Shown here: positions 1,133 to 16,355 of the stretch, one piece after another
Numbering within the stretch: the stretch's first letter is position 1
Layout: every line of letters begins with the position of its first letter
Origin: Gemmatimonadota bacterium
GTDB lineage: Bacteria > Gemmatimonadota > Gemmatimonadetes > Gemmatimonadales > GWC2-71-9
Direction: 5' to 3'
NCBI GenBank assembly: GCA_039586365.1
Contig: JBDHKN010000099.1
Coordinates: forward strand, 1-16,355
Length of the DNA: 16,355 bases
Notes under the pieces: model-generated
Seen by the model: the letters and a program-made list of their open reading frames with translations, nothing else
Told to the model about the DNA's origin: nothing
Database searches by the model: none
Position numbers and translations under genes: made by a program

Positions 1133-1434
1133 TCGGTGTTGCGATACAGCTGCGGCGCACGTGGTGACGTCCTCTAGTATGAATCAGGCCCGCCATATTG
1201 GTCAAAACCGGGTCGGTGCTGGGCCGCCGCGTCTGGAGGCGGCGTTCGGCACGGCCGACTCCGGGACCCTGAAAGCACGTTCGGTACACCTGCGGAACCG
1301 TCGCCCCACGCAGCCGCTCAGCCAGAGCGTATTGGTCATGTGAAGCTGCGGTCGGTTCCCTGTTACGACGGCCCGCAATATGCACTAAATTTGCCGTCAT
1401 GTGGTCGTGATGCAGCAGGGTGGAGGTCAAGTCC

Positions 1435-3036
1435 ATGAAAGAAAGAACCAGCGACGAGAAGCTCGCCCCCGTGTGGAGAACCCCGCGCCGCGGCCGCAAG
1501 GCTGTCGATTTGCCGGGTCAGAAACCTGACTCCGGTTCGACTCGGCCCAAGTCCGAGCCTACTCAAGCTGAGCGACCAGTCGAGCGGCATGAACTCGAGG
1601 CTAGGATCGAGAGCCTCACGGCCGAGACGGCGAAGCTCAAGCGTGCGCTAGGGCCGCTCGCCCGATTCAGAACCGTCATCGATCAGGCGGATGAGGCCAT
1701 CTTCGTGATCGATCCCAAGACAGACCGCTTCATCGATGCCAATCAAACGGCGCTGAGATGGCTCGGGCGGGAGCGCAAAGACCTTCTCACGCTCACAATC
1801 CACGACGTGGCCGTTGAGTTCCCCCTGGGATACCCAGAGGCTCAGGCAGCCCTGATCACGGACAAGCGGAACTTCCAGCGGCCGTATGTGTGCGGCAGAG
1901 TGCACCGTCGCCGAGACGGCTCTTCTTTCCCTGTCGAAGTCGCAGTGGCATCACGCCGTTTCGGAGAGCGCACCTATACGCTGGTGGTTGCTCGCGAGAG
2001 TAGGCGGCACCGCAAGGTCGAAAGGGCAATGCGTGAGGCGGAAGACAGATACTACACGCTGTTCAATCTCACGCAGGAGGCCGTTTATCTCACCACACGG
2101 GGCGGTCGCATCTGCGACGTGAACGAGGCCGCCATCGAGCTATTGGGATACGCTCGAGAGGAGCTGATCGAGCTTCAAGCTGGCAAATTGTATTCAGAAG
2201 TGCCGGATACTCGCCGGATCAAGGCGGGCCTGAAAGCAAACGGATTCGTGCGAGACATCTCCGTTCGGCTCCGCGCGAAGGATGGCTCCTCGATCGATGG
2301 CCTCCTGTCGGTGTCTCCCCGACGCTCGGGAGGTGAAGCCGTCGGCGGATACCAATGCATCGTACGACCGGTGAACCACGGCCCGTCGGAGCAACCCACG
2401 CTAGTGCTAGAGTCGATCGACGTGGCGCCTAAGCCAGCTACCAGTCGGGCGGCAGCAACCGAGACTGGTGCTCCCGAGGCTGAGCCACGTCAGATCCCTG
2501 GCTTGTCGGGTGAGGTTGGGACACGCAAGCGGGGCGAATTGGAGGTTGGCAAACGGACCCAGCCGAAGTACCAACCGTCCCCAGCGTTCGATTCGGCTCC
2601 AAAGTGGCATCACAAACCGTGGACTCTGGTGGTCGTCCTCGGTGCAGTCGTGGCTCTGTTCGGCTGGACCGACCTAGTGGCGCTCACATACCCCTACAAC
2701 GCTGGCCTCCCGGAATGGCAACTGACAGTGCGGCTGCTGGCGCTGATTCTGCTGGCCCTTGGCGTTGCCGGCCAGGCGTGGTGGCGCACGGCGAGGGGAG
2801 TGGCAATTGGTCTCTCACTACTCGGCCTCACATTGTTGGTGGTGTATATCAACTACGTGAGAGGCTTCCCGTTCGAACTCAGGGACGCAGTACCAGATAC
2901 ACAGCCGCAGCTCGTCACCGCTATCATTGGAGCTTCGGGCTTCGCCCTGGCACTACTCCTCTTCTGCGGTTGGGTATCCTGGCGTCTGTGGACCGGTGTA
3001 CGCCCGGAGCAAACCCACCCGCGGGTGATAATGTGA
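1435..3036 (+). CDS. PAS domain S-box protein: coiled coil, two PAS-PAC domains, linker, four C-terminal TM helices
   Basis: GGAGG at 1422-1426 precedes ATG 1435. PAS1: RFRTVIDQADEAIFVID...DANQTALRWLG...RRRDGSSFPVEV. PAS2: RYYTLFNLTQEAVYLTTRGGRICDVNEAAIELLGYAREEL...LRAKDGS. Four hydrophobic segments in the last ~140 aa. Confidence 0.85.
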   Translation: MKERTSDEKLAPVWRTPRRGRKAVDLPGQKPDSGSTRPKSEPTQAERPVERHELEARIESLTAETAKLKRALGPLARFRTVIDQADEAIFVIDPKTDRFIDANQTALRWLGRERKDLLTLTIHDVAVEFPLGYPEAQAALITDKRNFQRPYVCGRVHRRRDGSSFPVEVAVASRRFGERTYTLVVARESRRHRKVERAMREAEDRYYTLFNLTQEAVYLTTRGGRICDVNEAAIELLGYAREELIELQAGKLYSEVPDTRRIKAGLKANGFVRDISVRLRAKDGSSIDGLLSVSPRRSGGEAVGGYQCIVRPVNHGPSEQPTLVLESIDVAPKPATSRAAATETGAPEAEPRQIPGLSGEVGTRKRGELEVGKRTQPKYQPSPAFDSAPKWHHKPWTLVVVLGAVVALFGWTDLVALTYPYNAGLPEWQLTVRLLALILLALGVAGQAWWRTARGVAIGLSLLGLTLLVVYINYVRGFPFELRDAVPDTQPQLVTAIIGASGFALALLLFCGWVSWRLWTGVRPEQTHPRVIM

Positions 3037-3388: not shown

Positions 3389-6300
3389 ATGCGCACATAT
3401 GAGAGCGCCCGCTGGCCCAGAGCCCTGCGGGTTCTGATAATTCTCGCAGTAGCGGCTTGCGGTGATGGTCCAAGCATCGTAGGCCCAGAACCGGAACACC
3501 TCGCTTTCAGCGTACAACCCTCCGACCAGACCGCCGGGTCTTCGATTCAACCTGCGATCAAAGTGACCGTACAGGATGCCGGAGGATTTCGGGTAACCGA
3601 TGCGACCATGCGGGTCACCCTACAGTTGGCGTCGAATCCCGGTAACGCCGTTCTCACGGGGACGGTGGCGGTGAATGCCGTGGGCGGCGTGGCAACTTTC
3701 GCAGACGTGTCGATCGACAAGGTAGCGAGCGGGTACACGCTCTCCGCGAGTGCGCCCGCCGTGAGCGGTGCGACGAGCGAACCGTTCGCCATCGCCGCCG
3801 GAGGACCTGCCCAACTCGTCTTCACGAGCAACCCCAGCGATGTGACGGCAGGTCAAGTGATCATGCCACCCGTCGAGGTGACCGTGCAGGACGCTTTCGG
3901 CAACGTGGCAGCTGGTGCCCCAATCGACGTTACACTCGAACTCGCGGGACCTAGCCCCAATGCGCCGCAGCAAGTCAGCGAGTCCAGCGAAGCAGCCAGC
4001 AGCAGCGTCGCAGCGACCCCGGCGGCCGGTGCGGCTGCCGACGAGCCCACGCTCCACGGGAACACGACCGTCACAGCGATCAGCGGGGTTGCCACCTTCG
4101 ACGATCTGTGGATTGACGGGGCTGCCAGCGGTTACACGCTCAGGGCCCTGGCGGGCGGACTGACCAGCGGGTCCAGCGCATCCTTCACCACCACCCCGGC
4201 CGCACCGGTGCAGATCGGCTTCGAGACTCAGCCGAGTGATGGAATCGCCGCCGCACCGATCCCACCTGTCCAGGTGGCGATACAGGACAGGTTCGGCAAT
4301 GCGGTCACCACGACATCGGGCTCTGCGACAGTGGTGCTCGCCGCCAACCCGGGTGGCGCCACTCTGTCGGGCACTCTGACCAGGACCATCATCAACGGTG
4401 TGGCGACGTTCGACGACCTCTCCCTCGAGAAGGTGGCCAGCGGATACACCCTGACAGCCACGGTCTCCGGTTACAACGACGTCACAAGTGATCCCTTTGC
4501 GATCGGAGCCGGTGAGGCTACCCAACTCAGATTCCGGACTCAGCCGAGCGATGCGGACGCATTCATTCCCATAGCGCCGCCCATCGAGGTCGAATTCCTT
4601 GACAGTTTCGGCAACCCGCTCACTACTGCATCTCAATTCGTCACGCTTGCTATGGGCAGCAACCCGGGTGGCGGCTCACTCTCGGGAATCAAGACAGTGG
4701 CCCCGGTGAATGGCGTCGCGACCTTCAACAACGTCTGGATCGACATGCCGGCGTCCGGCTACACGTTGCAGGCGAGTGCCACCGGCCTCGTTGGCGCAAC
4801 AAGCAACGCTTTCACCATCAGCGAGGGCAGAGCAACACAGCTGGGATTCAGGACTCAGCCGAGTGATGCGCTCGCGGGTGTGGCAATCGCGCCCCCGATT
4901 CAAGTGGGCATCCACGACGCCATGGGCAACCTACTCGCCACCGCTAACCAGGCCGTTACGGTAGCGATCGACTCGAACCCCGGGGGCGGCGTACTCTCGG
5001 GCACCGCGACGGTGAGCGCCGTGGGCGGGATAGCTACGTTCAGCGACCTCCAGATCGACCAGGCAGCGGCAGGCTACTCGCTATCCGCTACCACCAGCGG
5101 GCTCACCGGAGCGACCAGCAATCTGTTCGACATAACGGCGGGGCCTGCAACGCGATATGTGATTCTCGATCCCCCCGACGGCATCGTGGGTGTGCCGATC
5201 CTGGTCACGGTGCAGGCCCAGGATCAATTCGGTAACGTGGCGACCGGGGAAAACCGCGGCGTGACACTGCTGCCCACGGGCTCCGCCGACGGTGGCTTCG
5301 TGTTCATCACGAACGGTACGGGCACTGTGCTGGTCGAAGACCAGGTGGCCGAGACTGTCACTCTCAGGCTGGCGGACACGGAAGGCACTAACCTCGACGT
5401 GAGCTCGACCCAGTCTGTCACCTTCGCTCCCGCCGGGGCGACGCAGTATGTGATAGTTGATCCGACCGATGGAATGATCCGGACCCCCATCACTATCACG
5501 GTGCAGGCCCAGGATCAATACGGCAACCTGGTAGCTGCGGAGAATCGCGATGTGACGCTGGCGGTCTCCGGCTCGGCCACCGGTGGCGGCCTGGTGGATA
5601 TCCAGAACGGGGTCGGAACGATCGATATCAACGATCAGGTGCCGGAGACGGTCACCCTCACGCTGCAGGACACCGAGGGCACCGGGCTCGATGTCAGCTC
5701 AACCCAGGACGTTGTGTTCACGTCCAGCACAGCGACCCGAATAGAGATCTTAGATCCAACCGACGGGACGGTTGACGCACCGGTCCTGGTTGTGCTGCGA
5801 GCAATGGACGAGTTTGGCAACGTGGCCACTGGGGAGAACCGCGGTGTCACCATGCTGGCGTCAGGTTCAGCGGTCGGTGGGTTCGTGAATTTCACGAGCG
5901 GCGTGGGCACGTTATTGCTGTACGATGACGTAGCTGAGACGGTTACGCTCTCGCTGGTGGACACGGAACTGACGGGCCTGGATGTGAGCTCGACCCAGAA
6001 TGTGGTGTTTGCCCCTGGGGCGGTCACACAGTACGTGATACTGGACCCGGCCGATGGGGTGATCGAGAGTCCGATCACCGTCACGGTGCAGGCCCAGGAT
6101 CAGTATGGCAATCTCGTCCCCAGTGAGAATCGCGATGTGACGCTGGTGGCCTCCGGCTCGGCCACCGGCGGCGGCCTGGTGAACATCCAAAATGGCGTCG
6201 GCACGCGAAACATCACTGACGCGGTGCCGGAAACGGTCACGCTCTCGCTATCGGACACGGAGAGCACGGGGCTGAATGTTAGCTCGACGCAGACCGTGGT

Positions 6301-9300
6301 GTTTGCTGCAGGCACAGCGACGCGGTTCGTGATCCAGGATCCCGCCGACGGCACGGTGGACGCCCCGATTCTGGTTGCGGTGCGGGCGCTGGATCAGTTC
6401 GGCAATGTGGCCACCGGCGAGAACCGCGGCGTGACACTGCAGGCGTCAGGCTCCGCATTCGGCGGGTTCGTGAACATCACGAATGGCGTGGGTACTGTGC
6501 TGATCGACGATCAGGTGGCCGAGACGGTCACGCTCTCGCTGCTGGACACTGAGCTGACGGGATTGGATGTGAGCTCGACCCAGACGGTGGTGTTCGCCCC
6601 TGGCGCAGTCACCAAGTATGTAATCCTGGAGCCGCCCGATGGCATGATCAACGACCCGATCCCCGTCACGGTGCAGGCCCAGGATCAGTACGGTAATCTG
6701 GTGACCGGAGAGAACCGCGACGTGACGCTGGTGGCCTCGGGCTCGGCAACCGGTGACGGCCTGGTGAACATCACGAACGGGGTCGGTACACGAAGTATCA
6801 CTGACGCAGTGCCCGAAACGGTCACGCTCTCCTTGTCCGATACCCAGGGGACAGGGCTGAATGTGAGTTCGACCCAGACGGTGGTGTTCGCCGCAGGTGC
6901 CGCGACTCGATTTGTGATCCAGGACCCGGCCGACGGCACGGTCGACGCCCCGATTCTAGTGACGGTGCTTGCACTAGATCAGTGGGGCAATGTGGCGACC
7001 GGAGAGAACCGCGGGGTGACACTGGAGACCTCGGGCTCGGCATTCGGCGACTTCGTGAACTTCGTGGCCGGACAAGGCACCGCACTGATCTCGGACCAAG
7101 TAGCCGAGACGGTCACGCTCTCGCTGCTGGACACAGAGGCGACCGGTCTCGACGTCAGCTCGACCCAGACTGTCTTCTTCGGCCCCGGAGCGGGGGCGCA
7201 GTACGTCATCCTCGACCCGACTGACGGACCAATCCTGAATCCGATCACCGTCACGGTGCAGGCCCAGGATCAGTACGGCAACCTGGTCCCCAGCGAGAAT
7301 CGTGACGTCACGCTGGTGACCTCGGGCTCGGCTACCGGTGGCGGGCTGGTGAACATCCAAAACGGGGTCGGCACCCGGAACATAAATGACGCAGTGCCGG
7401 AGACTGTCACACTATCGCTGTCCGACACTCAGGGTACCGGGCTGGACGTGAGCTCGACCCAGGATGTCGTGTTCGGCGCCGGCCCGGCCACGAAGTTGGT
7501 GATCCTGAATCCGACTGACGGGACGGTTGACGCCCCGATCATGGTAACGGTCCAGGCCCAGGATGAGTTCGGCAATTTGGCGACCGGTGAGAACCGGGGG
7601 GTCACGCTAGTGGCCTCAGGATCGGCCCTAGGCGATTTCGTGAACATTGTAAACGGCGTGGGCACGACGTTTGTCTTCGACCAAGTAGCTGAGACAGTCA
7701 CACTCTCGCTTTCCGACACTCAGGGGACGGGATTGGATGTGAGTTCGACCCAGGATGTGGTGTTCTCAGTCGGAGCAGTGGCGCGTTATGTCATCCTGGA
7801 CTTGACCGATGGGACTGTGGGCATTCCACTCACAGTCACTGTGCGGGCCGCGGATCAGTACGGCAACCTGGTTACCGGAGAGAATCGCGACGTGACGCTG
7901 GTAACCTCGGGATCGGCTACGGGTGGTGGCTTGGTGGACATAGTAAACGGAGTCGGCACACGGGACATCACTGACGCGGTGCCTGAAATAATCACACTCT
8001 CACTGTCGGACACCGAGGGCACCGGGCTGAACGTGAGTTCGACCCAGCAGGTGATGTTCTCCGCGGGCGCAGCCACGAAGTTCGTGATCATGGACCCGAT
8101 CGATGGAACGACTGACCACCCGATCCTGGTTACAGTCCAGGCACAGGATCAGTTCGGCAATGTGGCAACCGGTGAGAACCGCGGCGTGACCCTGGTTACC
8201 TCGGGTGCAGCGTCCGGTGGGTTCGTGAGCGTGGTGGAAGGCGTGGGCGCCATCTTGGTATACGATGAAGTGGTCGAAACCGTACAACTCTCGTTAGCCG
8301 ATACTCAGGGCACGGGATTGGATGTGAGCTCGACCCAGGATGTGGTGTTCGCAATCGGTGCGGTGGCGCGGTATGCAATCCTGGACCCGACCGACGGACC
8401 GGTAGGCACCCCGGTCACCGTCACAGTTCAAGCGCAGGATCAGTGGGGCAACGTGTTCACCGCGGAGAATCGCGACGTGACTCTGGTGGCCTCGGGCTCG
8501 GCGACTGGTGACGGCCTGGTGAACATCCAAAACGGTGTGGGCACGCTGAACATCAACGATGCAGTACCCGAAACCGTCTCGCTATCGCTGTCGGATACAC
8601 AGGGTACGGGACTGGATGTGAGCTCGACCCAGGATGTGGTGTTCTCCGCGGGCGCGGCGACGCGCTTCGTGATCGATGACCCGGCCGATGGCACGGTCGG
8701 CTCTCCGATCACCGTTACGGTGCGGGCGCTGGATGCGCTCGGCAACGTGGCGACCAGCGAGAGCCGCGGTGTGACACTGGTGGCCTCGGGCTCCGCGGTC
8801 GGTGGACTCGTGAACATCACAAGTGGCGTCGGCTCGGTGAATGTCACCGACCAGGTAGCAGAAACCGTCACGCTCTCACTGTCCGACACTCAGGGCACGG
8901 GACTGGATGTGACTTCGACCCAGACAGTGGTGTTCGCCGCCGGTGCAGCGAACCGGTTCGTGATTTTAGACCCAACCAACGGGACGGTGGGCACTCCGAT
9001 CCCGGTGACTGTGCAAGCCCAGGATCAGTATGGTAACCTGGTCTCCGGGACGCTGCAGGTGACCCTCGTGACCTCGGGCTCAGCCACCGGTGGCGGGCTG
9101 TGGACCGTAAGTGGAGGCACCGTCACCCGGAATATCGAAGACACGGTCGCCGAGACGGTCTCGCTCTCGCTGTCCGATACCCAGGGAACAGGGCTGAACG
9201 TTAGCTCCACTCAAGATGTGGTGTTCTCTTCCGGCGGAGCAACGCGCTTCGTGATCGACGACCCAGCCGATGGGACGGTTGACAACCCAATCACGGTAAC

Positions 9301-9832
9301 GGTGCGGGCGCTGGATGCGCTCGGCAACGTGGCGACCAGCGAGAACCGCGGTGTGACACTGGTGACCTCGGGCTCCGCGGTCGGTGGACTCGTGAACATC
9401 ACGAGTGGCGTCGGCTCCGTGAATGTCACCGACCAGGTAGCAGAAACCGTCACGCTCTCACTGTCCGACACTCAGGGCACGGAACTGGATGTGACTTCGA
9501 CCCAGACAGTTGTCTTCGCCGTCGGTGCAGCTAACCGGTTCGTGATCCTGGACCCAACCGACGGGACGGCGGGCACCCCGATCCCGGTGACTGTGCAGGC
9601 CCAGGATCAGTATGGTAACCTGGTCTCTGGGACACTGCAGGTGACCCTCGTGACCTCGGGCTCAGCCACCGGTGGCGGGCTGTGGACCGTAAGTGGAGGC
9701 ACCGTCACCCAGAATATCGAAGACGCGGTCGCCGAGACGGTCACGCTTACGTTGTCCGATTCGCAAGGCACCGGGCTGAATGTGAGTTCGACCCAGGACG
9801 TGGTCTTCGGCGCCGCTCCGCCACCGGAGTAA
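3389..9832 (+). CDS. Giant surface lipoprotein or adhesin-like protein with tandem bacterial Ig-like repeats (2147 aa)
   Basis: Lipoprotein signal (RVLIILAVAA-C). Five ~104 aa repeats (F-x-x-QPSD...QDxFGN...NPGG...GVATFxDLxID...GYTL) are followed by sixteen ~97-98 aa repeats (VILDPxDG...VQAQDQxGN...VTL...AETVTLSLxDTxGTGLDVSSTQ). Rich in V/T/G/D with beta-strand patterning. Confidence 0.9.
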   Translation: MRTYESARWPRALRVLIILAVAACGDGPSIVGPEPEHLAFSVQPSDQTAGSSIQPAIKVTVQDAGGFRVTDATMRVTLQLASNPGNAVLTGTVAVNAVGGVATFADVSIDKVASGYTLSASAPAVSGATSEPFAIAAGGPAQLVFTSNPSDVTAGQVIMPPVEVTVQDAFGNVAAGAPIDVTLELAGPSPNAPQQVSESSEAASSSVAATPAAGAAADEPTLHGNTTVTAISGVATFDDLWIDGAASGYTLRALAGGLTSGSSASFTTTPAAPVQIGFETQPSDGIAAAPIPPVQVAIQDRFGNAVTTTSGSATVVLAANPGGATLSGTLTRTIINGVATFDDLSLEKVASGYTLTATVSGYNDVTSDPFAIGAGEATQLRFRTQPSDADAFIPIAPPIEVEFLDSFGNPLTTASQFVTLAMGSNPGGGSLSGIKTVAPVNGVATFNNVWIDMPASGYTLQASATGLVGATSNAFTISEGRATQLGFRTQPSDALAGVAIAPPIQVGIHDAMGNLLATANQAVTVAIDSNPGGGVLSGTATVSAVGGIATFSDLQIDQAAAGYSLSATTSGLTGATSNLFDITAGPATRYVILDPPDGIVGVPILVTVQAQDQFGNVATGENRGVTLLPTGSADGGFVFITNGTGTVLVEDQVAETVTLRLADTEGTNLDVSSTQSVTFAPAGATQYVIVDPTDGMIRTPITITVQAQDQYGNLVAAENRDVTLAVSGSATGGGLVDIQNGVGTIDINDQVPETVTLTLQDTEGTGLDVSSTQDVVFTSSTATRIEILDPTDGTVDAPVLVVLRAMDEFGNVATGENRGVTMLASGSAVGGFVNFTSGVGTLLLYDDVAETVTLSLVDTELTGLDVSSTQNVVFAPGAVTQYVILDPADGVIESPITVTVQAQDQYGNLVPSENRDVTLVASGSATGGGLVNIQNGVGTRNITDAVPETVTLSLSDTESTGLNVSSTQTVVFAAGTATRFVIQDPADGTVDAPILVAVRALDQFGNVATGENRGVTLQASGSAFGGFVNITNGVGTVLIDDQVAETVTLSLLDTELTGLDVSSTQTVVFAPGAVTKYVILEPPDGMINDPIPVTVQAQDQYGNLVTGENRDVTLVASGSATGDGLVNITNGVGTRSITDAVPETVTLSLSDTQGTGLNVSSTQTVVFAAGAATRFVIQDPADGTVDAPILVTVLALDQWGNVATGENRGVTLETSGSAFGDFVNFVAGQGTALISDQVAETVTLSLLDTEATGLDVSSTQTVFFGPGAGAQYVILDPTDGPILNPITVTVQAQDQYGNLVPSENRDVTLVTSGSATGGGLVNIQNGVGTRNINDAVPETVTLSLSDTQGTGLDVSSTQDVVFGAGPATKLVILNPTDGTVDAPIMVTVQAQDEFGNLATGENRGVTLVASGSALGDFVNIVNGVGTTFVFDQVAETVTLSLSDTQGTGLDVSSTQDVVFSVGAVARYVILDLTDGTVGIPLTVTVRAADQYGNLVTGENRDVTLVTSGSATGGGLVDIVNGVGTRDITDAVPEIITLSLSDTEGTGLNVSSTQQVMFSAGAATKFVIMDPIDGTTDHPILVTVQAQDQFGNVATGENRGVTLVTSGAASGGFVSVVEGVGAILVYDEVVETVQLSLADTQGTGLDVSSTQDVVFAIGAVARYAILDPTDGPVGTPVTVTVQAQDQWGNVFTAENRDVTLVASGSATGDGLVNIQNGVGTLNINDAVPETVSLSLSDTQGTGLDVSSTQDVVFSAGAATRFVIDDPADGTVGSPITVTVRALDALGNVATSESRGVTLVASGSAVGGLVNITSGVGSVNVTDQVAETVTLSLSDTQGTGLDVTSTQTVVFAAGAANRFVILDPTNGTVGTPIPVTVQAQDQYGNLVSGTLQVTLVTSGSATGGGLWTVSGGTVTRNIEDTVAETVSLSLSDTQGTGLNVSSTQDVVFSSGGATRFVIDDPADGTVDNPITVTVRALDALGNVATSENRGVTLVTSGSAVGGLVNITSGVGSVNVTDQVAETVTLSLSDTQGTELDVTSTQTVVFAVGAANRFVILDPTDGTAGTPIPVTVQAQDQYGNLVSGTLQVTLVTSGSATGGGLWTVSGGTVTQNIEDAVAETVTLTLSDSQGTGLNVSSTQDVVFGAAPPPE
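3494..5149 (+). repeat. Five type-1 Ig-like coding repeats
   Basis: Units start at HLAFSVQPSD, QLVFTSNPSD, QIGFETQPSD, QLRFRTQPSD and QLGFRTQPSD. Confidence 0.85.
5150..9815 (+). repeat. Sixteen type-2 Ig-like coding repeats alternating A/B (pair period ~582-585 bp)
   Basis: Odd units carry GNVATGENRGVTL. Even units carry YGNLVxxENRDVTL...SATGGGLV, changing to GNLVSGTLQVTL in units 14 and 16. Antisense shadow ORFs recur at a 585 bp offset (6100 versus 6685). Confidence 0.9.
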
Positions 9833-9984: not shown

Positions 9985-11184
9985 TCAATTGAGATCGGCC
10001 GTACGCACCTCCTCCTCAGGCGGGATCAGATCGGCGACCACAGGACGGTGATCGGAACCGAAATTCGGGCCGACGAAGGCACGTTGCACCTGCCAGCCAT
10101 CGCTCGCCAGAATGTGATCGATGCGAACTCTGATCCACCCGTTGAGTCGAGTTGCGCCGAATCCGAAACCCGCATGTGAGAACGCGTTCCGGAGGTCGCC
10201 CCAGTATCGCCGGTAGATCACGCTCTCTACGGGAGTGTTGAAATCTCCCACAACCAGAAACGGCCCGCTCACCGAGTCGACCCAGCGTCGCGCCAGTCGG
10301 GATTCTATTTCTCTCAGAGCAGTCTTCGTCAGCAACCTCCGCTGGCCCTCGGACACGTTGCCCGCACGCAGTCGCTCCAGACCCGCGCGCGGAGTGTCGA
10401 GGTGCAGATTGGTCACGCGGATATTCTGACCGGGCGCTTCGATGGTATAGCGGATCACCAGGCCAGATCCACCCGCAAATTCGAGGTTCTCACGCTCCAT
10501 CTCATCGGCGGCAGCTATGGGAAACCGGCTCACCAGGCAGAGCGAACCTTGGATGTGATGGGCCACAGCCACTTCCGAGAGATTCGCTATGGACTCCGCC
10601 ATCCGTCTGCCACATTCCTGGAAAGCGATTATGTCCGCCCTCAACTCTTCCATTATCCAGGAGGCCGAGAGCCTAAGGGCTCGGCCACCAGCCACGTTGT
10701 ACGTAACCACCCTGATGGAGCGAACCGAATCGCCTCCGGTGAACCAACTGCGCCAACCGGTCCGGAACCCCATTGTCGGCCCAGCCACAATGAGTAGCGC
10801 CAAAGCCAGGGGCACAAGAGATCGTCTGGAGTATTTCACGGCCGCGGGGATCAGGCCTACCAGGGGTAACAGCAGCAGCCAGCGGGGGCCAAACAGTAAC
10901 ACCGTCAGCGGCCACCATGCGTCGGCCCAGATCCAGAAACCCAGCGCCAGGAGGGTGACCGCTGCGAGATAGCCCCACGAAAGCCAAATAGTCCGGCGCA
11001 CAGCGGTACCTGTGGCCGACATTCGATAAATGATCGCGATGAGTGCAAGGACCCTACGAATACGGGTTGGATCTACGGGGGTCTTGCACTTCGGACACCG
11101 TGCAGCCGCCCAAAAGCGCCTGGGATCCAGACGCACCTTGTGCTTTTCCTTGCAGCCGACGATCACACTTGCTGAACTAGCCAC
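9985..11184 (-). CDS. Endonuclease/exonuclease/phosphatase (EEP) family protein with N-terminal TM helices
   Basis: EEP motifs TYNV, DIIAFQE, NLHL, VVGDFNT, RIDHIL and GSDHRPV, preceded by several hydrophobic helices. Start position uncertain. Confidence 0.88.
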   Translation of the reverse strand: MASSASVIVGCKEKHKVRLDPRRFWAAARCPKCKTPVDPTRIRRVLALIAIIYRMSATGTAVRRTIWLSWGYLAAVTLLALGFWIWADAWWPLTVLLFGPRWLLLLPLVGLIPAAVKYSRRSLVPLALALLIVAGPTMGFRTGWRSWFTGGDSVRSIRVVTYNVAGGRALRLSASWIMEELRADIIAFQECGRRMAESIANLSEVAVAHHIQGSLCLVSRFPIAAADEMERENLEFAGGSGLVIRYTIEAPGQNIRVTNLHLDTPRAGLERLRAGNVSEGQRRLLTKTALREIESRLARRWVDSVSGPFLVVGDFNTPVESVIYRRYWGDLRNAFSHAGFGFGATRLNGWIRVRIDHILASDGWQVQRAFVGPNFGSDHRPVVADLIPPEEEVRTADLN

Positions 11185-11429: not shown

Positions 11430-11594
11430 ATGGCCGAATGTCCTGTATGTGGTGCGGAAGTGCCCCTCAGCAACGACACCGTCGCCAGTGAGCTGATGGA
11501 GTGTCCGGACTGCGGTACGGAGCTGGAGGTCTTGGACACCGACCCACTAACCTTGGCCGAAGCTCCAGAGTCCGAGGAGGACTGGGGCGAATGA
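11430..11594 (+). CDS. lysW: Amino-group carrier protein LysW (54 aa)
   Basis: GAGGA Shine-Dalgarno before ATG 11430. MAECPVCG...[11 protein letters not shown]...[10 protein letters not shown] has two CxxC zinc knuckles, an acidic composition and the diagnostic C-terminal EDWGE. Confidence 0.97.
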
Positions 11595-12427
11595 GAGTCG
11601 GTTTTCTGTATTCGCTGATCCGGAAGGAAGAAAAGCTCCTGATTGACGAATTCGGGAAACACTCGGACGTCGAGTTGGTGATGCTCGACGACCGCAAGCT
11701 GATCTTCGACCTGCAGCACAGGTTGGATGTCGATGTCGTACTGGAACGCTGCATCAACCATTCCCGGGCGATGCATGGCTTGCGAATACTGGAAAGCACT
11801 GGCGTCGGCTGCGTCAACACGGCTCATGTTGCCAGCATCTGCGGCGACAAGCTCCTCACCTCCCTGGCACTGCACGACCACGGTGTGCCGCAGCCGGAGC
11901 TGCGAGTGGCGTTCACCGAGGAGTCGGCCTTGGAGGCGATCGAGCAACTCGGCTATCCGGTGGTACTGAAACCCGCGGTGGGCTCTTGGGGACGGCTACT
12001 GTCGAAAGTGAACGACCGCGAAGCCGCTGAATCTATCTTGGAACACAAGACCATTCTTGGCAGCTATCACCACTCCGTCTTCTATATGCAGAAGTACATT
12101 GACAAGAAGGGCCGTGACATCCGTAGCTTCGTGGTCGGCGACGCGTGTGTTGCTGCAATCTACCGCACCTCCGAACACTGGATCACTAACACGGCACGCG
12201 GAGCAAAGGCCACTGGTTGTCCGGTCACTGACGAGATAGCCGAAATCTCCCTACAGGCAGCGACGGCGGTGGGAGGGGGAGTGCTGGCGGTGGATCTATT
12301 CGAGACTCCGCATGGTTTGCTGGTCAACGAAGTGAACTACACAATGGAGTTCCGCAACAGCATCGCCACCACCGGTGTGAACATTCCCGGCAAGATCGTA
12401 GACTACTTGGTGGCGCCGGCACGATGA
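11591..12427 (+). CDS. lysX: Alpha-aminoadipate--LysW ligase (RimK/ATP-grasp family)
   Basis: ATGA overlap with lysW. Motifs [21 protein letters not shown]...HWITNTARG and [11 protein letters not shown], typical of LysX. Confidence 0.93.
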
Positions 12428-13449
12428 TCACTGCTTCCATAGTGGGCGGTTCGGGCTATTCGGGCGGTGAGCTGCTCCGGCTGCTGTTGTTTCACCCGCA
12501 TGTGCAGATCCAGCAGGCTACCTCGGAGCGGCTCGCCGGGAAATTCGTTCACAACGCCCATCCCAACCTGCGTCAGGTGAGCAGTCTCAAGTTCGCCGCC
12601 GCGGCTGAACTCGAGCCGTGCGATGTCTTGTTTCTCTGCCTGCCCCACGGCAATGCAATGGCTCGCATCGACGAGTTCCGCGGATTGGCCGGCAAGCTGG
12701 TGGACCTGAGCAGTGACTTTCGGCTGCATGACCGCGCTGCCTACCTCAAGTGGTACGGGAGGGAACACGCGCGTCCCGAGCTGCTCGAAACGTTCAGCTA
12801 CGGCATTCCGGAGCTGCACCGTGAGACCATCAAACGGGCCACCCATGTGGCCTGCGCTGGATGCAACGCAACCGCCACGATCCTGGCGCTACATCCGTTG
12901 TACAGGCGTGGTCTCGTCGAGTCTGCCGTTGTCGAGGTCAAAGCGAGTTCCAGCGAAGCTGGTAACGTTGCGAGCGACGCCAGCCACCATCCCGAGCGGA
13001 GCGGGGTGGTACGTTCCTACAAGCCCGCGGGCCATCGGCACGTGGCCGAGATGATACAGGAACTCGGTAGCGAGAATATCCACTTCTCCGCCACGTCCAT
13101 CGAGATGGTCCGGGGAATCCTGGCTACCTGTCACGCCTTTCTCACCGAACCGTTGGAAGAGAAGCAGATTTGGAGGATCTACCGCGAAGACTACGGAGCC
13201 GAACCGTTCGTTCGACTCGTCAAAGAGCGCAGCGGGATCCACCGTTATCCCGAACCCAAGTTGCTCTCCGGCACCAACTACTGCGACATCGGATTCGAGC
13301 GTGACGCGGACTCCAACCGTCTGGTGGTCATCAGCGCCATCGACAACCTCATGAAGGGCGCGGCAGGCCAGGCGGTGCAAGCATTCAACCTCATGCACGG
13401 GCTGCCTGAGACCACCGGTCTCGAGTTTCCCGGTTTGCACCCGATCTGA
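12424..13449 (+). CDS. lysY: LysW-gamma-aminoadipyl-phosphate reductase (ArgC family)
   Basis: ATGA overlap with lys[15 protein letters not shown]ossmann motif, DLSSDFRL, catalytic [26 protein letters not shown]. Confidence 0.93.
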
Positions 13450-13458
13450 GTCGTCCCA

Positions 13459-14094
13459 ATGTGCAGGTTGTTGTGCGTTCGGGCCAGCAGCGCCTTCGAC
13501 ATACGGGCTCACCTGGATACCTTTGCCGCCATCGCCCGCGACAGCAAGGAGTACCAGGGACATGGGTGGGGCTGCGCCTGGCTGGAATCCGGGAAGTGGC
13601 GTAGCTACCACAACATCGTGCCCATTTGGGAGGACCAAGCAGCCCCGCACGAAAGGACTACGATGATGTTAGCGCACGCCCGTAGTGCTTTCCGGGACGA
13701 GGGGGTAAGCGTCGAAAACAACATGCCCTTTGGCGACGGCAATTACATGTTCGCCTTCAACGGGGAGCTACGCGGAGTGAGGATAAGGGAGCACGGCCGC
13801 ATCGGGGCCGAGAAGGTCTTCAACTACATCAAGCGATTCGACAAAGGCGACATGTTGCATGCCCTGAGGCGTGCGCTCGGTATAATCGAACAGCGCAGCC
13901 GTTACGTGCGGGCCATGAACATCGTCATTGCGAGCACACGCCAAGCTTGGGTTGCAACGAAGTACAACGAGGATCCCGATTATTTCCAAATGCACAGGTA
14001 TCGGAGCGATGACGTGCAAATTCTCTGTTCGGAGGCGTACCCCGGAGGGCAAGACTGGTTACCCGTGCCCAACGGAACTATGGAATCCTTCTGA
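13459..14094 (+). CDS. Class II glutamine-amidotransferase-fold Ntn hydrolase (EgtC/YafJ/Dug3-like), 211 aa
   Basis: N-terminal M-C-R-L-L (Cys nucleophile after Met removal), GHGWG, LAHARSA, ENNMPF and FAFNG (oxyanion-hole NG), C-terminal SE motif. Confidence 0.88.
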   Translation: MCRLLCVRASSAFDIRAHLDTFAAIARDSKEYQGHGWGCAWLESGKWRSYHNIVPIWEDQAAPHERTTMMLAHARSAFRDEGVSVENNMPFGDGNYMFAFNGELRGVRIREHGRIGAEKVFNYIKRFDKGDMLHALRRALGIIEQRSRYVRAMNIVIASTRQAWVATKYNEDPDYFQMHRYRSDDVQILCSEAYPGGQDWLPVPNGTMESF

Positions 14095-14180
14095 CGTGGA
14101 GCGTCCCAGGCCATTTGTCCAGCACGCCCAAAGACGCGACTGGGACCAGCGCCACTGAAACCCAGACCGGTGTCCGCACC

Positions 14181-14972
14181 ATGTATATAGTGAAGATAGG
14201 TGGTGGCGACAGCATCAATCTGGCAGGTATCGTCGCCGATCTCGCGGAGATCGCTGAACGGTTCGTGATTGTGCATGGCGCCAACGCATTGCGGGACAGT
14301 CTTGCTGAGCGACTCGGTGCCCCACGCGAGACGCTCACGTCGGTATCTGGCTACACCAGCGTTTACTCCGACGCCAGGGCAATCGATGTGATACTGATGA
14401 GCTACGCGGGCCTGCGTAACAAACGTCTGGTAGAACTCTGCCAAAGCCATGGCATCAATGCAGTGGGACTCAGCGGCATCGACGGGAGGTTGATAGAGGG
14501 TCAACGGAATCGTGGCATACGGGTCCGCGAAGGCGGCAAGACACTGATACGGCGTGACCTCTCGGGCAAACCCAAGCGCGTGAACGCGGATCTCCTCTGG
14601 CTGCTGCTCAACAACGGCTATACGCCAGTGCTCAGCATTCCCATTCTGGACGAGCAGCATACTGCGATCAACTCAGAAAACGACGACATCATCAACCTGC
14701 TGCAGGCTTCCTTGCAGGCGAAGCGGATCTTCCAGTTCATCGGAGCGCCAGGATTCCTCGAGGACCCCGATGACCCCACCAGTCTCGTGAAGCAGCTCTC
14801 GCAGACCGAGCTCGCGGAGCGGGAGCAGCAGGTCGAAGGCCGCATGAAACGCAAGATTTTGGCGCTCCGCAATCTGTTCCAAGCGGGCGCCGCCGAGGTC
14901 AGCATCAGCGACGGGCGCACGGAGCACCCAGTGCGCGACGCATTGGCAGGCAAAGGAACGTTGATCCGATGA
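14181..14972 (+). CDS. lysZ: LysW-gamma-aminoadipate kinase (ArgB / amino-acid kinase family)
   Basis: MYIVKIGGG, VIVHGAN, SVSGYTSVYSD, NAVGLSGIDG, GRMKRK. ATG 14181 matches the family N-terminus; TTG 14115 is an alternative start. Confidence 0.92.
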   Translation: MYIVKIGGGDSINLAGIVADLAEIAERFVIVHGANALRDSLAERLGAPRETLTSVSGYTSVYSDARAIDVILMSYAGLRNKRLVELCQSHGINAVGLSGIDGRLIEGQRNRGIRVREGGKTLIRRDLSGKPKRVNADLLWLLLNNGYTPVLSIPILDEQHTAINSENDDIINLLQASLQAKRIFQFIGAPGFLEDPDDPTSLVKQLSQTELAEREQQVEGRMKRKILALRNLFQAGAAEVSISDGRTEHPVRDALAGKGTLIR

Positions 14973-16117
14973 GCGCCCGTGAGCTCGAACAGACCTACGG
15001 ATTCGAGGTCTTTCCCAAGCGCGATGTCACGATCGTAAAGGGGGAAGGCGCCACGCTGTGGGATCAAGCAGGAAGAGCATACATCGATTGCACGGCCGGG
15101 GTGGGTGTCGCCAGCATCGGTCACGCCAACCGCCAGGTGGCCGATGCTATCGCCGAGCAGGGCAGGAAGCTCATCACCTGTCCCGGGATATTCTACAACG
15201 ACACGCGCGCGCGGCTTCTCGAGAGACTGGTGTCCATCGCACCGGCAGGGCTGAATCGGGCCTTCCTCTGCAACTCAGGCACTGAGAGCGTCGAAGCCGC
15301 AATTAAGTTTGCGCGCCATGCCACCGGACGCACTGAATTCGTCTGTGCCATGCGAGGTTTTCATGGCCGCACACTCGGTGCGCTGAGCGCCACCTACAAG
15401 CATCGCGACGTTTTCGAGCCTTTGCTTCAAGGTTTCACTTTCGTACCCTTGAACAATATCGCCAAGCTCAGTGACGCGGTCTCCAACACTACCGCCGCCG
15501 TATTGCTCGAGGTGGTGCAGGGTGAAGGCGGCGTCCGCCTGGCTGACGCGGAGTATCTCACCGCAGTTCGCGAACTCTGTGACCAGCGCGGGGTGTTACT
15601 CATTGTCGATGAGGTGCAAACCGGATTCTGTCGTACCGGTCGCATGTTCGCCTGCCAGCACTTCGGTCTCCGGCCTGACATGATGTGCGTGGCAAAGGCG
15701 ATGGCGGGAGGGATACCGATGGGGGCAGTGCTGTGTGGCGACTCCGTCCAACCAGCCGTGGGTATCCACGGCTCGACCTTCGGTGGTAACCCGGTAGCCT
15801 GCGCCGCGGCGCTCGCCACCATCGACTACATGCAACAGCACGACCTAGCCACGCAGGCTGCCCTCAAGGGTACCCACTTCGCCACCAGGTTCAGCGAGCG
15901 CCTGCCCACCAAGGTCCGCGAGCTGCGCTACCTGGGCCTGATGATCGGTATTGAACTCAAGACAAAGGCGCAGCCGTATCTGATCGCTCTCATGGAGCGT
16001 GGCGTGTTGGCACTGCAAGCCGGTCCCACGGTCATCCGGCTGCTGCCCCCACTAGTGATCAGTCTCGCGGAATTGGACGCCGTCGCGGACGCGCTCGAGG
16101 ATGCTCTAGGCGACTGA
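14969..16117 (+). CDS. lysJ: LysW-gamma-aminoadipate semialdehyde aminotransferase (class III PLP, ArgD family)
   Basis: ATGA overlap with lysZ. CNSGTESVEAAIKFAR, GFHGRTLGALS, VQGEGG, DEVQTG, AKAMAGG (PLP lysine), HGSTFGGNP, IRLLPPL. Confidence 0.92.
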   Translation: MSARELEQTYGFEVFPKRDVTIVKGEGATLWDQAGRAYIDCTAGVGVASIGHANRQVADAIAEQGRKLITCPGIFYNDTRARLLERLVSIAPAGLNRAFLCNSGTESVEAAIKFARHATGRTEFVCAMRGFHGRTLGALSATYKHRDVFEPLLQGFTFVPLNNIAKLSDAVSNTTAAVLLEVVQGEGGVRLADAEYLTAVRELCDQRGVLLIVDEVQTGFCRTGRMFACQHFGLRPDMMCVAKAMAGGIPMGAVLCGDSVQPAVGIHGSTFGGNPVACAAALATIDYMQQHDLATQAALKGTHFATRFSERLPTKVRELRYLGLMIGIELKTKAQPYLIALMERGVLALQAGPTVIRLLPPLVISLAELDAVADALEDALGD

Positions 16118-16135: not shown

Positions 16136-16354
16136 TCAGGGGCCTGCTCGTGATATCAACTCGGCGCACAGCTCGAGATGCGCAGCAATCATTTGCTCCA
16201 CGGTAAACCGCGCCAGCACCCTGCTTCGGCCGGCTTCCCCCAGCCGCGCCCTGAGCTCAGCACTGCCGGCTAGGGTCTCCATCGCAGTCCGCAGCGCCAC
16301 GCTGTCTCCAGGCGGAACAACCAGACCGGTTACCTCCGGGACATTCACCTCACG
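16136..16354 (-). CDS. Glycosyltransferase family 4 (GT-B), C-terminal fragment
   Basis: The frame is open to the window edge: REVNVPEVTGLVVPPGDSVALRTAMETLAGSAELRARLGEAGRSRVLARFTVEQM, a typical Glycos_transf_1 C-terminus. Confidence 0.85.
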   Translation of the reverse strand, partial: REVNVPEVTGLVVPPGDSVALRTAMETLAGSAELRARLGEAGRSRVLARFTVEQMIAAHLELCAELISRAGP

Positions 16355-16355
16355 T

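Follow-up and report, generated by a model that had tools for sequence, protein, structure and literature searches.

Every characterised LysW route found in the literature searched ends with an M20 metallopeptidase such as LysK, the [LysW]-lysine hydrolase of Thermus, Sulfolobus and Thermococcus (TIGR01902, NF003367). Stand-alone proteins with the class II glutamine amidotransferase (GATase) fold are described from other settings, among them EgtC, the N-terminal nucleophile (Ntn) amidohydrolase of the ergothioneine pathway (PDB 4zfj, 4zfk and 4zfl), and the YafJ-like glutamine amidotransferases of PF13230 (PDB 1te5 and 3mdn). The subject of this study is a 16,355-nucleotide stretch of a Gemmatimonadota bacterium (the window, which is the whole of contig JBDHKN010000099.1, assembly GCA_039586365.1; the genome has 5.4 Mb and is 86% complete), in which six same-strand open reading frames (ORFs) occupy positions 11430-16117 (+) in the order lysW-lysX-lysY-ORF211-lysZ-lysJ. 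The initial annotation had suggested that ORF211 (13459..14094, +), encoding a 211-aa cysteine hydrolase of the class II GATase/Ntn fold, is a non-orthologous, cysteine-dependent substitute for LysK, and this proposal is backed by linkage to lysW, by exclusion of LysK, by the fold and catalytic residues of the protein, by a telling substitution in its active site and by modelling of its complex with LysW. Taken together, these sequence and modelling results make it very probable that ORF211 is the carrier-release enzyme of its type of LysW operon.

The conserved linkage with lysW that this proposal implies proved to be fixed in GTDB loci, in genomes of the host's own phylum and in metagenomic loci; the family members for which it is shown are those sharing at least about 42% identity. 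In all 24 GTDB loci with an ORF211 homologue, the gene lies directly after lysY and, as far as the contigs reach, inside lysW-X-Y-ORF211-Z-J. These loci span Gemmatimonadota, Gammaproteobacteria, Phycisphaerae, Binatia, Syntrophobacterales and Bacteroidetes records; two of them have no lysJ or lysZ/J at that position and two have a shortened lysY. The own-phylum sample comprised 401 genomes, 41 with LysX over the cut-off and 360 LysX-negative (the unpublished genome G081 among the latter). Strong ORF211 matches (E<1e-60) were present in 37 genomes, all within the 41, and in none of the 360, six of which carry weak matches only (E 5e-9 or worse). One genome (G580) has a second ORF211 copy, which likewise lies beside lysW and lysY, and lysX is retained in essentially every operon examined. 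Clustering of flanking ORFs (71 sequences) gave lineage-specific neighbours only, and a further conserved operon member was therefore rejected. In the mapped loci the genes immediately next to ORF211 are not ergothioneine genes but lysY and lysZ, unless the contig stops there; senB adjoins the cluster in one annotated locus, not across phyla.

Several variants of the operon were also seen. Its lysY is shortened in two genomes of one small phylum (L022:7474-7900 and L023:7769-7894), one of which has a full argC/lysY-like gene elsewhere, and a relative in that phylum carries a separate lysW-lysY-ORF211 mini-cluster (L163:8464-10340). Two mosaic operons (L009:2795-3601 and L012:8639-9445) have ORF211 together with a LysZ that is just 38% identical and resembles the LysZ of lysK-type operons. 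A partial tandem duplication with two ORF211 copies (L020:631-10165) may be an assembly artefact.

ORF211 and LysK have the same operon partners and a complementary distribution, and share the predicted substrate and bond, namely the gamma-amide between the C-terminal Glu of LysW and the alpha-amine of the product. The two differ in fold (unrelated), in the attacking group (metal-activated water in LysK, a Cys nucleophile predicted for ORF211), in length (about 350 versus 211 aa) and in gene position, ORF211 lying between lysY and lysZ and lysK mostly after lysJ in the loci seen. Membership of ORF211 in the LysK family was rejected, as it has no M20 match (TIGR01902/NF003367) and folds as an Ntn hydrolase. 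The host genome, at 86% completeness, yielded no LysK over the cut-off: its best TIGR01902 score was 71.7 (cut-off 163.1), compared with 305-330 bits for true LysK proteins of relatives. This top match is YgeY, and the next two, also rejected, are a weak M20 protein and an ArgE/DapE-family protein. In one genome, ygeY and a carbamoyltransferase gene lie in an apparent selenium-linked purine-degradation cluster (G000:C88, L176:6363-18001).

The 41 LysX-positive genomes of the host's phylum comprise 37 with ORF211 only, three with LysK only (two of these LysK proteins were also scanned with NF003367, and pass) and one with neither, whose contig stops after lysJ; eleven of those with ORF211 and no LysK are single contigs. 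LysX screens in three other phyla were positive in 4 of 151, 6 of 12 and 23 of 251 genomes, giving 29 genomes additional to those already tested: four with ORF211 only, 22 with LysK only, three with neither and none with both. The combined 70 genomes, chosen solely for LysX, thus have ORF211 in 41 cases, LysK in 25, neither in four and both in none. LysK did not exceed the cut-off in any of the 24 genomes of the GTDB ORF211 loci, and in five ORF211 genomes TIGR01902 matches nothing, even with the limit at E 1e-10. Confirmed metagenomic lysW loci numbered 513; the best 80 of these, in which M20 matches were counted from 100 bits, divide into 19 with ORF211, nine with LysK, 52 with neither (mostly short contigs) and none with both. 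An M20 match below that threshold, weak and at 30% identity, occurs in one of the ORF211 loci. Both the absence of LysK from the host and the mutual exclusivity of the two genes, as anticipated in the initial annotation, were therefore borne out.

By its fold, N-terminal Cys and Asn-Gly and HxR motifs, ORF211 is a Cys-Ntn protein of the class II GATase fold. An AlphaFold2 model built from a 51-sequence alignment had a predicted local distance difference test score (pLDDT) of 89.5, and its top solved match in Foldseek was EgtC (template modelling score (TM) 0.82, root mean square deviation 2.9 A, E 6e-12, 17-19% identity), followed by YafJ-like, PurF and GlmS domains, with TM values of 0.67-0.73 for GlmS, PurF and GFAT domains. 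Profile scores are weak (EgtC TIGR03442 46.5 versus a cut-off of 218.65; PF13230 22.9 versus 23), and EgtC membership was rejected on the former. ORF211 resembles EgtC as a stand-alone protein with an N-terminal Cys (its N-terminus reads Met-Cys-Arg), and differs from it, besides the score, in the lack of an ergothioneine gene in the operon, in the protein-bound nature of its predicted substrate and in a Gly replacing a conserved Asp. The Cys2, GWG, HxR and NG motifs of YafJ-like proteins align with ORF211, which is shorter than these, is obligately linked to lysW and reads GRIGAEK (residues 113-119) where E. coli YafJ has GETDSEK in the multiple alignment.

The characteristic residues of ORF211 include Cys2, Arg3, His73, Arg75 and Asn101-Gly102. 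Cys2 is kept in all but one of the 51 close and all but one of the 38 distant members, and His73, Arg75, Asn101 and Gly102 in all 51 close members. The conserved Asp of the GATase T-D-S/T-E motif corresponds to Gly116, which is Gly in 51/51 close and 37/38 distant members and Asp in all three YafJ-like outgroups; the G-x-x-G-[AS]-E-K pattern is carried by 324 of 324 close homologues. A first pairwise alignment with EgtC had placed the Asp opposite Glu118 in a low-confidence stretch, and the multiple alignment with YafJ-like proteins, which points to Gly116, was preferred. In class II GATases this Asp binds the alpha-amine of free glutamine, whereas the equivalent nitrogen in LysW lies within a peptide bond. 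The family is large: its homologues form 3,165 clusters at 90% identity, and reduction to 50% identity gave 129 representatives with E up to 1e-30. The nearest named member is in a Gemmatimonadota record (72%), and databases label the members 'class II glutamine amidotransferase' or 'predicted glutamine amidotransferase'. Distant members (proteins P0192, P0227 and similar) retain the Gly-for-Asp change, and two of these are named as proteins of Dojkabacteria and Pacebacteria, groups usually said to lack amino-acid synthesis.

Modelling of ORF211 (residues 2-211) with LysW gave a complex score of 0.71, compared with 0.00 for the best of three controls. Of 157 solved complexes, 116 attain the mark used, as do 2 of 215 mismatched pairs; since our own alignments served as input, these counts apply only roughly here. 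At least 98% of contacts are shared between runs, with a partner pLDDT of at least 82. In the predicted complex, residues 45-54 of LysW contact ORF211 residues 2, 75-78, 89, 100-110, 115-120 and 146-148, with Trp52 on Leu104, Val107, Gly116 and Lys119, and Gly53 on Gly116 and Ala117. The LysW tail is thus predicted to thread into the Cys2 cleft, which supports binding of LysW by ORF211.

EgtC hydrolyses a gamma-glutamyl amide to the alpha-amine of an amino acid, and ORF211 probably does the work of LysK through similar chemistry. As in the established pathway, LysX would join the alpha-amine of the substrate to the gamma-carboxyl of LysW Glu54, and LysZ, LysY and LysJ would then give LysW-gamma-lysine or LysW-gamma-ornithine. 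After removal of Met1, ORF211 would bind the LysW tail and Cys2 would attack the gamma-amide. The roles that the Asn-Gly pair (oxyanion) and the HxR residues have in class II GATases suggest that Asn101/Gly102 would form the oxyanion hole and that Arg75 would hold the C-terminal carboxylate. The amino acid would depart and the LysW-thioester be hydrolysed by water, while Gly116, in place of Asp, may leave room for the peptide-linked Gly53-Glu54.

A cysteine nucleophile implies a covalent acyl-enzyme, unlike in LysK, and ORF211 might accordingly be both a hydrolase and a transpeptidase, the LysW-thioester being resolved by fresh aminoadipate or glutamate and the carrier reloaded without ATP, as in the cyclic acetyl transfer of ArgJ. 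This would fit all of the linkage and exclusion data, and ArgJ is placed among Ntn-like families in the available part of PMC9140057; with EgtC, the nearest solved relative, named a hydrolase, and with lysX kept in essentially all operons examined, we regard it as quite unlikely. A broader version, in which ORF211 founds a protein-isopeptide Cys-Ntn family that frees lysine or ornithine, passes the carrier through the LysW-thioester to new aminoadipate or glutamate and also deamidates Gln-ending carriers, is likewise unlikely. If true, the LysW pathway would have a cyclic form that saves ATP, in parallel with ArgJ, and that has passed between phyla as a cassette of six genes. The cassette could then serve for aminoadipate salvage as well, in bacteria whose lysine already comes from the diaminopimelate (DAP) route.

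The ending of LysW bears on another possibility, namely that ORF211 merely edits or matures the carrier (converting a C-terminal Gln to Glu or removing mis-loaded amino acids) and that an unlinked generic M20 peptidase frees the product. Class II GATases ancestrally deamidate glutamine, a C-terminal Gln is found on LysW in 14 of 82 ORF211-type and 0 of 14 LysK-type loci, the host genome has an ArgE/DapE-family M20 protein over the cut-off, and the predicted LysW binding is equally compatible with such a role. This difference in endings is not significant (Fisher p 0.21), 68 of the 82 carriers, including that of the host, already end in Glu, and an accessory editor is not expected to exclude LysK, yet none of the 70 genomes carries both; five ORF211 genomes, as noted, are without any TIGR01902 match at E 1e-10. 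A mere editing role is consequently highly unlikely; a Cys-Ntn amidase could deamidate Gln-ending carriers, but this is more plausibly something that the release enzyme does in addition to its main reaction. Finally, the database names of the homologues, and a fold and catalytic residues of that class, could indicate that ORF211 is a conventional glutaminase, or a hydrolase of small gamma-glutamyl compounds in the manner of EgtC, YafJ or Dug3, and is simply carried along in the operon. The distance from the EgtC cut-off, the replaced Asp, the absence of ORF211 from the 360 LysX-negative genomes, the lysW and lysY neighbours of the second copy in G580 and an operon without an ammonia-using synthetase make this extremely unlikely.

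Several observations weigh against ORF211 as the replacement of LysK. In the 86%-complete host genome, 30 M20-family matches exceed the Pfam cut-off and one of these also exceeds that for ArgE/DapE, and a generic M20 protein could release the product. In a tree of 98 LysX sequences (duplicates and loci of unknown type left out), 77 of 78 ORF211-type sequences fall in one clade (support 0.968); the ORF211 genomes are thus related and the exclusion reflects few independent events, a pattern that would fit roughly a single displacement and later dispersal across phyla. Of the four LysX-positive genomes without either enzyme, three are truncated by contig ends, and G814 (L165:5889-7983) has lysW-lysX-lysY with no ORF211, lysZ, lysJ or lysK in an 18-kb stretch and neither hydrolase in the genome. 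As regards the complex, the controls were not matched for the strong negative charge of LysW, solved complexes exist of LysW with LysZ and with LysY, and the Cys2-Glu54 pair is absent among the 25 listed contacts. The operon also looks redundant in 17 of 57 ORF211 genomes, where lysA occurs together with a canonical argB outside the operon, and replacement of LysK leaves that unexplained.

The layout of the operon is as the initial annotation had it, ORF coordinates and profile matches agreeing on a compact cluster between a divergent and a convergent gene. The first gene, lysW (11430..11594, +), encodes the 54-aa amino-group carrier protein (TIGR01206 67.3 versus a cut-off of 53.2; PF21344), with four Cys, 16 Asp/Glu, no Lys or Arg and a C-terminal EDWGE. 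It is followed by lysX (11591..12427, +), for the ATP-grasp ligase loading the amino acid onto LysW (TIGR02144 346.7 versus 275.6), and lysY (12424..13449, +), for the LysW-acyl-phosphate reductase of the ArgC family (TIGR01850 390 versus 233.6). Beyond ORF211 lie lysZ (14181..14972, +), for the [LysW]-aminoadipate kinase (NF010659 244.5 versus 223), and lysJ (14969..16117, +), for a class III pyridoxal phosphate-dependent aminotransferase (TIGR00707 416 versus 410), whose best match is the Thermus LysJ model NF042418, yet below its cut-off (422 versus 700). In NCBIfam, LysW, LysX and LysZ therefore pass specific cut-offs, and LysY and LysJ the broader ArgC and ArgD models. An EDWGE-ending LysW together with LysX, LysZ, LysY and LysJ (the last through TIGR00707 only) marks this as a LysW-pathway operon. 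The W/X, X/Y and Z/J junctions are 4-bp overlaps, and ORF211 is preceded by a 9-bp and trailed by an 86-bp gap. A scan for promoters and terminators gave nothing exceeding shuffled sequences. On the left, outside the operon, lies a divergent endonuclease/exonuclease/phosphatase-family gene (9985..11184, -; PF03372); on the right, the 3' end of a convergent ORF (16136..16355, -), truncated by the contig end, stops 18 bp after lysJ. This fragment has no Pfam or NCBIfam match, and we take it to resemble the C-terminus of a family 4 glycosyltransferase.

Regarding the product, the host LysX carries the F-I-T-NS signature of the LysX/aminoadipate type (Table 1 in the available part of PMC12998189), with spacing identical to that given for Thermus LysX, which according to the same text is at least ten-fold poorer with glutamate. 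The ArgX-type signature I-Y-V-GF is not present in it, and a haloarchaeal ArgX shows yet another motif. No homocitrate synthase exceeded the TIGR02146 cut-off in the 86%-complete host genome, which has only 27-30% matches to the operon-type enzyme; argJ and dapB were also looked for there and not found. The genome has lysA, dapF, argF, argG, argH and an ornithine aminotransferase, and LysZ and LysY are the sole argB-like and argC-like genes found in it. It thereby resembles the ArgW ornithine route of haloarchaea and Sulfolobus, as exemplified by Natrinema gari, for which the available part of PMC10433800 gives DAP genes, argF/argG/argH and no other argB/argC. The host differs from that route in its lysine-type LysX, in an operon not clustered with argF/G/H and in a predicted release enzyme outside M20. 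From the gene content, the product in the host is quite possibly ornithine, possibly lysine from scavenged aminoadipate, and, more doubtfully, both. For marine Gemmatimonadota, the LysW route was interpreted from annotation alone as one of ornithine synthesis (PMC11651109, available part).

A homocitrate-synthase-like gene follows lysW in some ORF211 operons (4 of 65 genomes and 6 of 19 metagenomic ORF211 loci); of three such genomes examined for lysA, two are without it and one has it. Where this gene sits in the operon, the product is most likely lysine. Among the 57 ORF211 genomes, 50 have lysA, 18 a separate canonical argB and 17 both, and the use of the cassette may therefore differ between hosts, ornithine synthesis in some and recovery of aminoadipate in others. 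In some Gammaproteobacteria, a CoA-transferase, a pipecolate-oxidase-like gene and a semialdehyde dehydrogenase adjoin the operon (L008:11268-14585 and L002:10958-12427), possibly linked to aminoadipate supply, or by chance.

No description of an Ntn-type LysW release enzyme was found in the literature searched, which left out most subscription papers of the main LysW laboratory; the main text of the GapMind 2026 preprint contains neither 'LysK' nor 'amidotransferase'. Actinopyridazinone, considered as a precedent for release without an M20 enzyme, was set aside, LysW not being involved in the part of that work available. If ORF211 acts as proposed, release by a cysteine enzyme would clearly exemplify non-orthologous displacement. 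It would also supply the step that seems to be missing from the pathway of many uncultured bacteria (the homologues form about 3,165 clusters at 90% identity), and proteins now labelled 'predicted glutamine amidotransferase' would gain a function. In the available part of the Caldithrix abyssi genome paper (PMC5317091), LysWXZYJ and Hcs were reported in one locus with no LysK named, and non-orthologous displacement was suspected; an ORF211-type enzyme may account for this gap. Our protein searches reached Calditrichota and Ignavibacteria records, but not C. abyssi itself.

The remainder of the window contains a tRNA gene with a CAT anticodon close to the contig start (284-356, -), a gene (1420-3036, +) whose 538-aa product combines two PAS domains with a hydrophobic C-terminus and in which no kinase domain was detected, and a gene (3389-9832, +) for a protein of 2147 aa that looks secreted, its N-terminus being lipoprotein-like and immunoglobulin-like repeats being numerous; the first 1000 aa of this protein give sub-threshold Pfam matches only.

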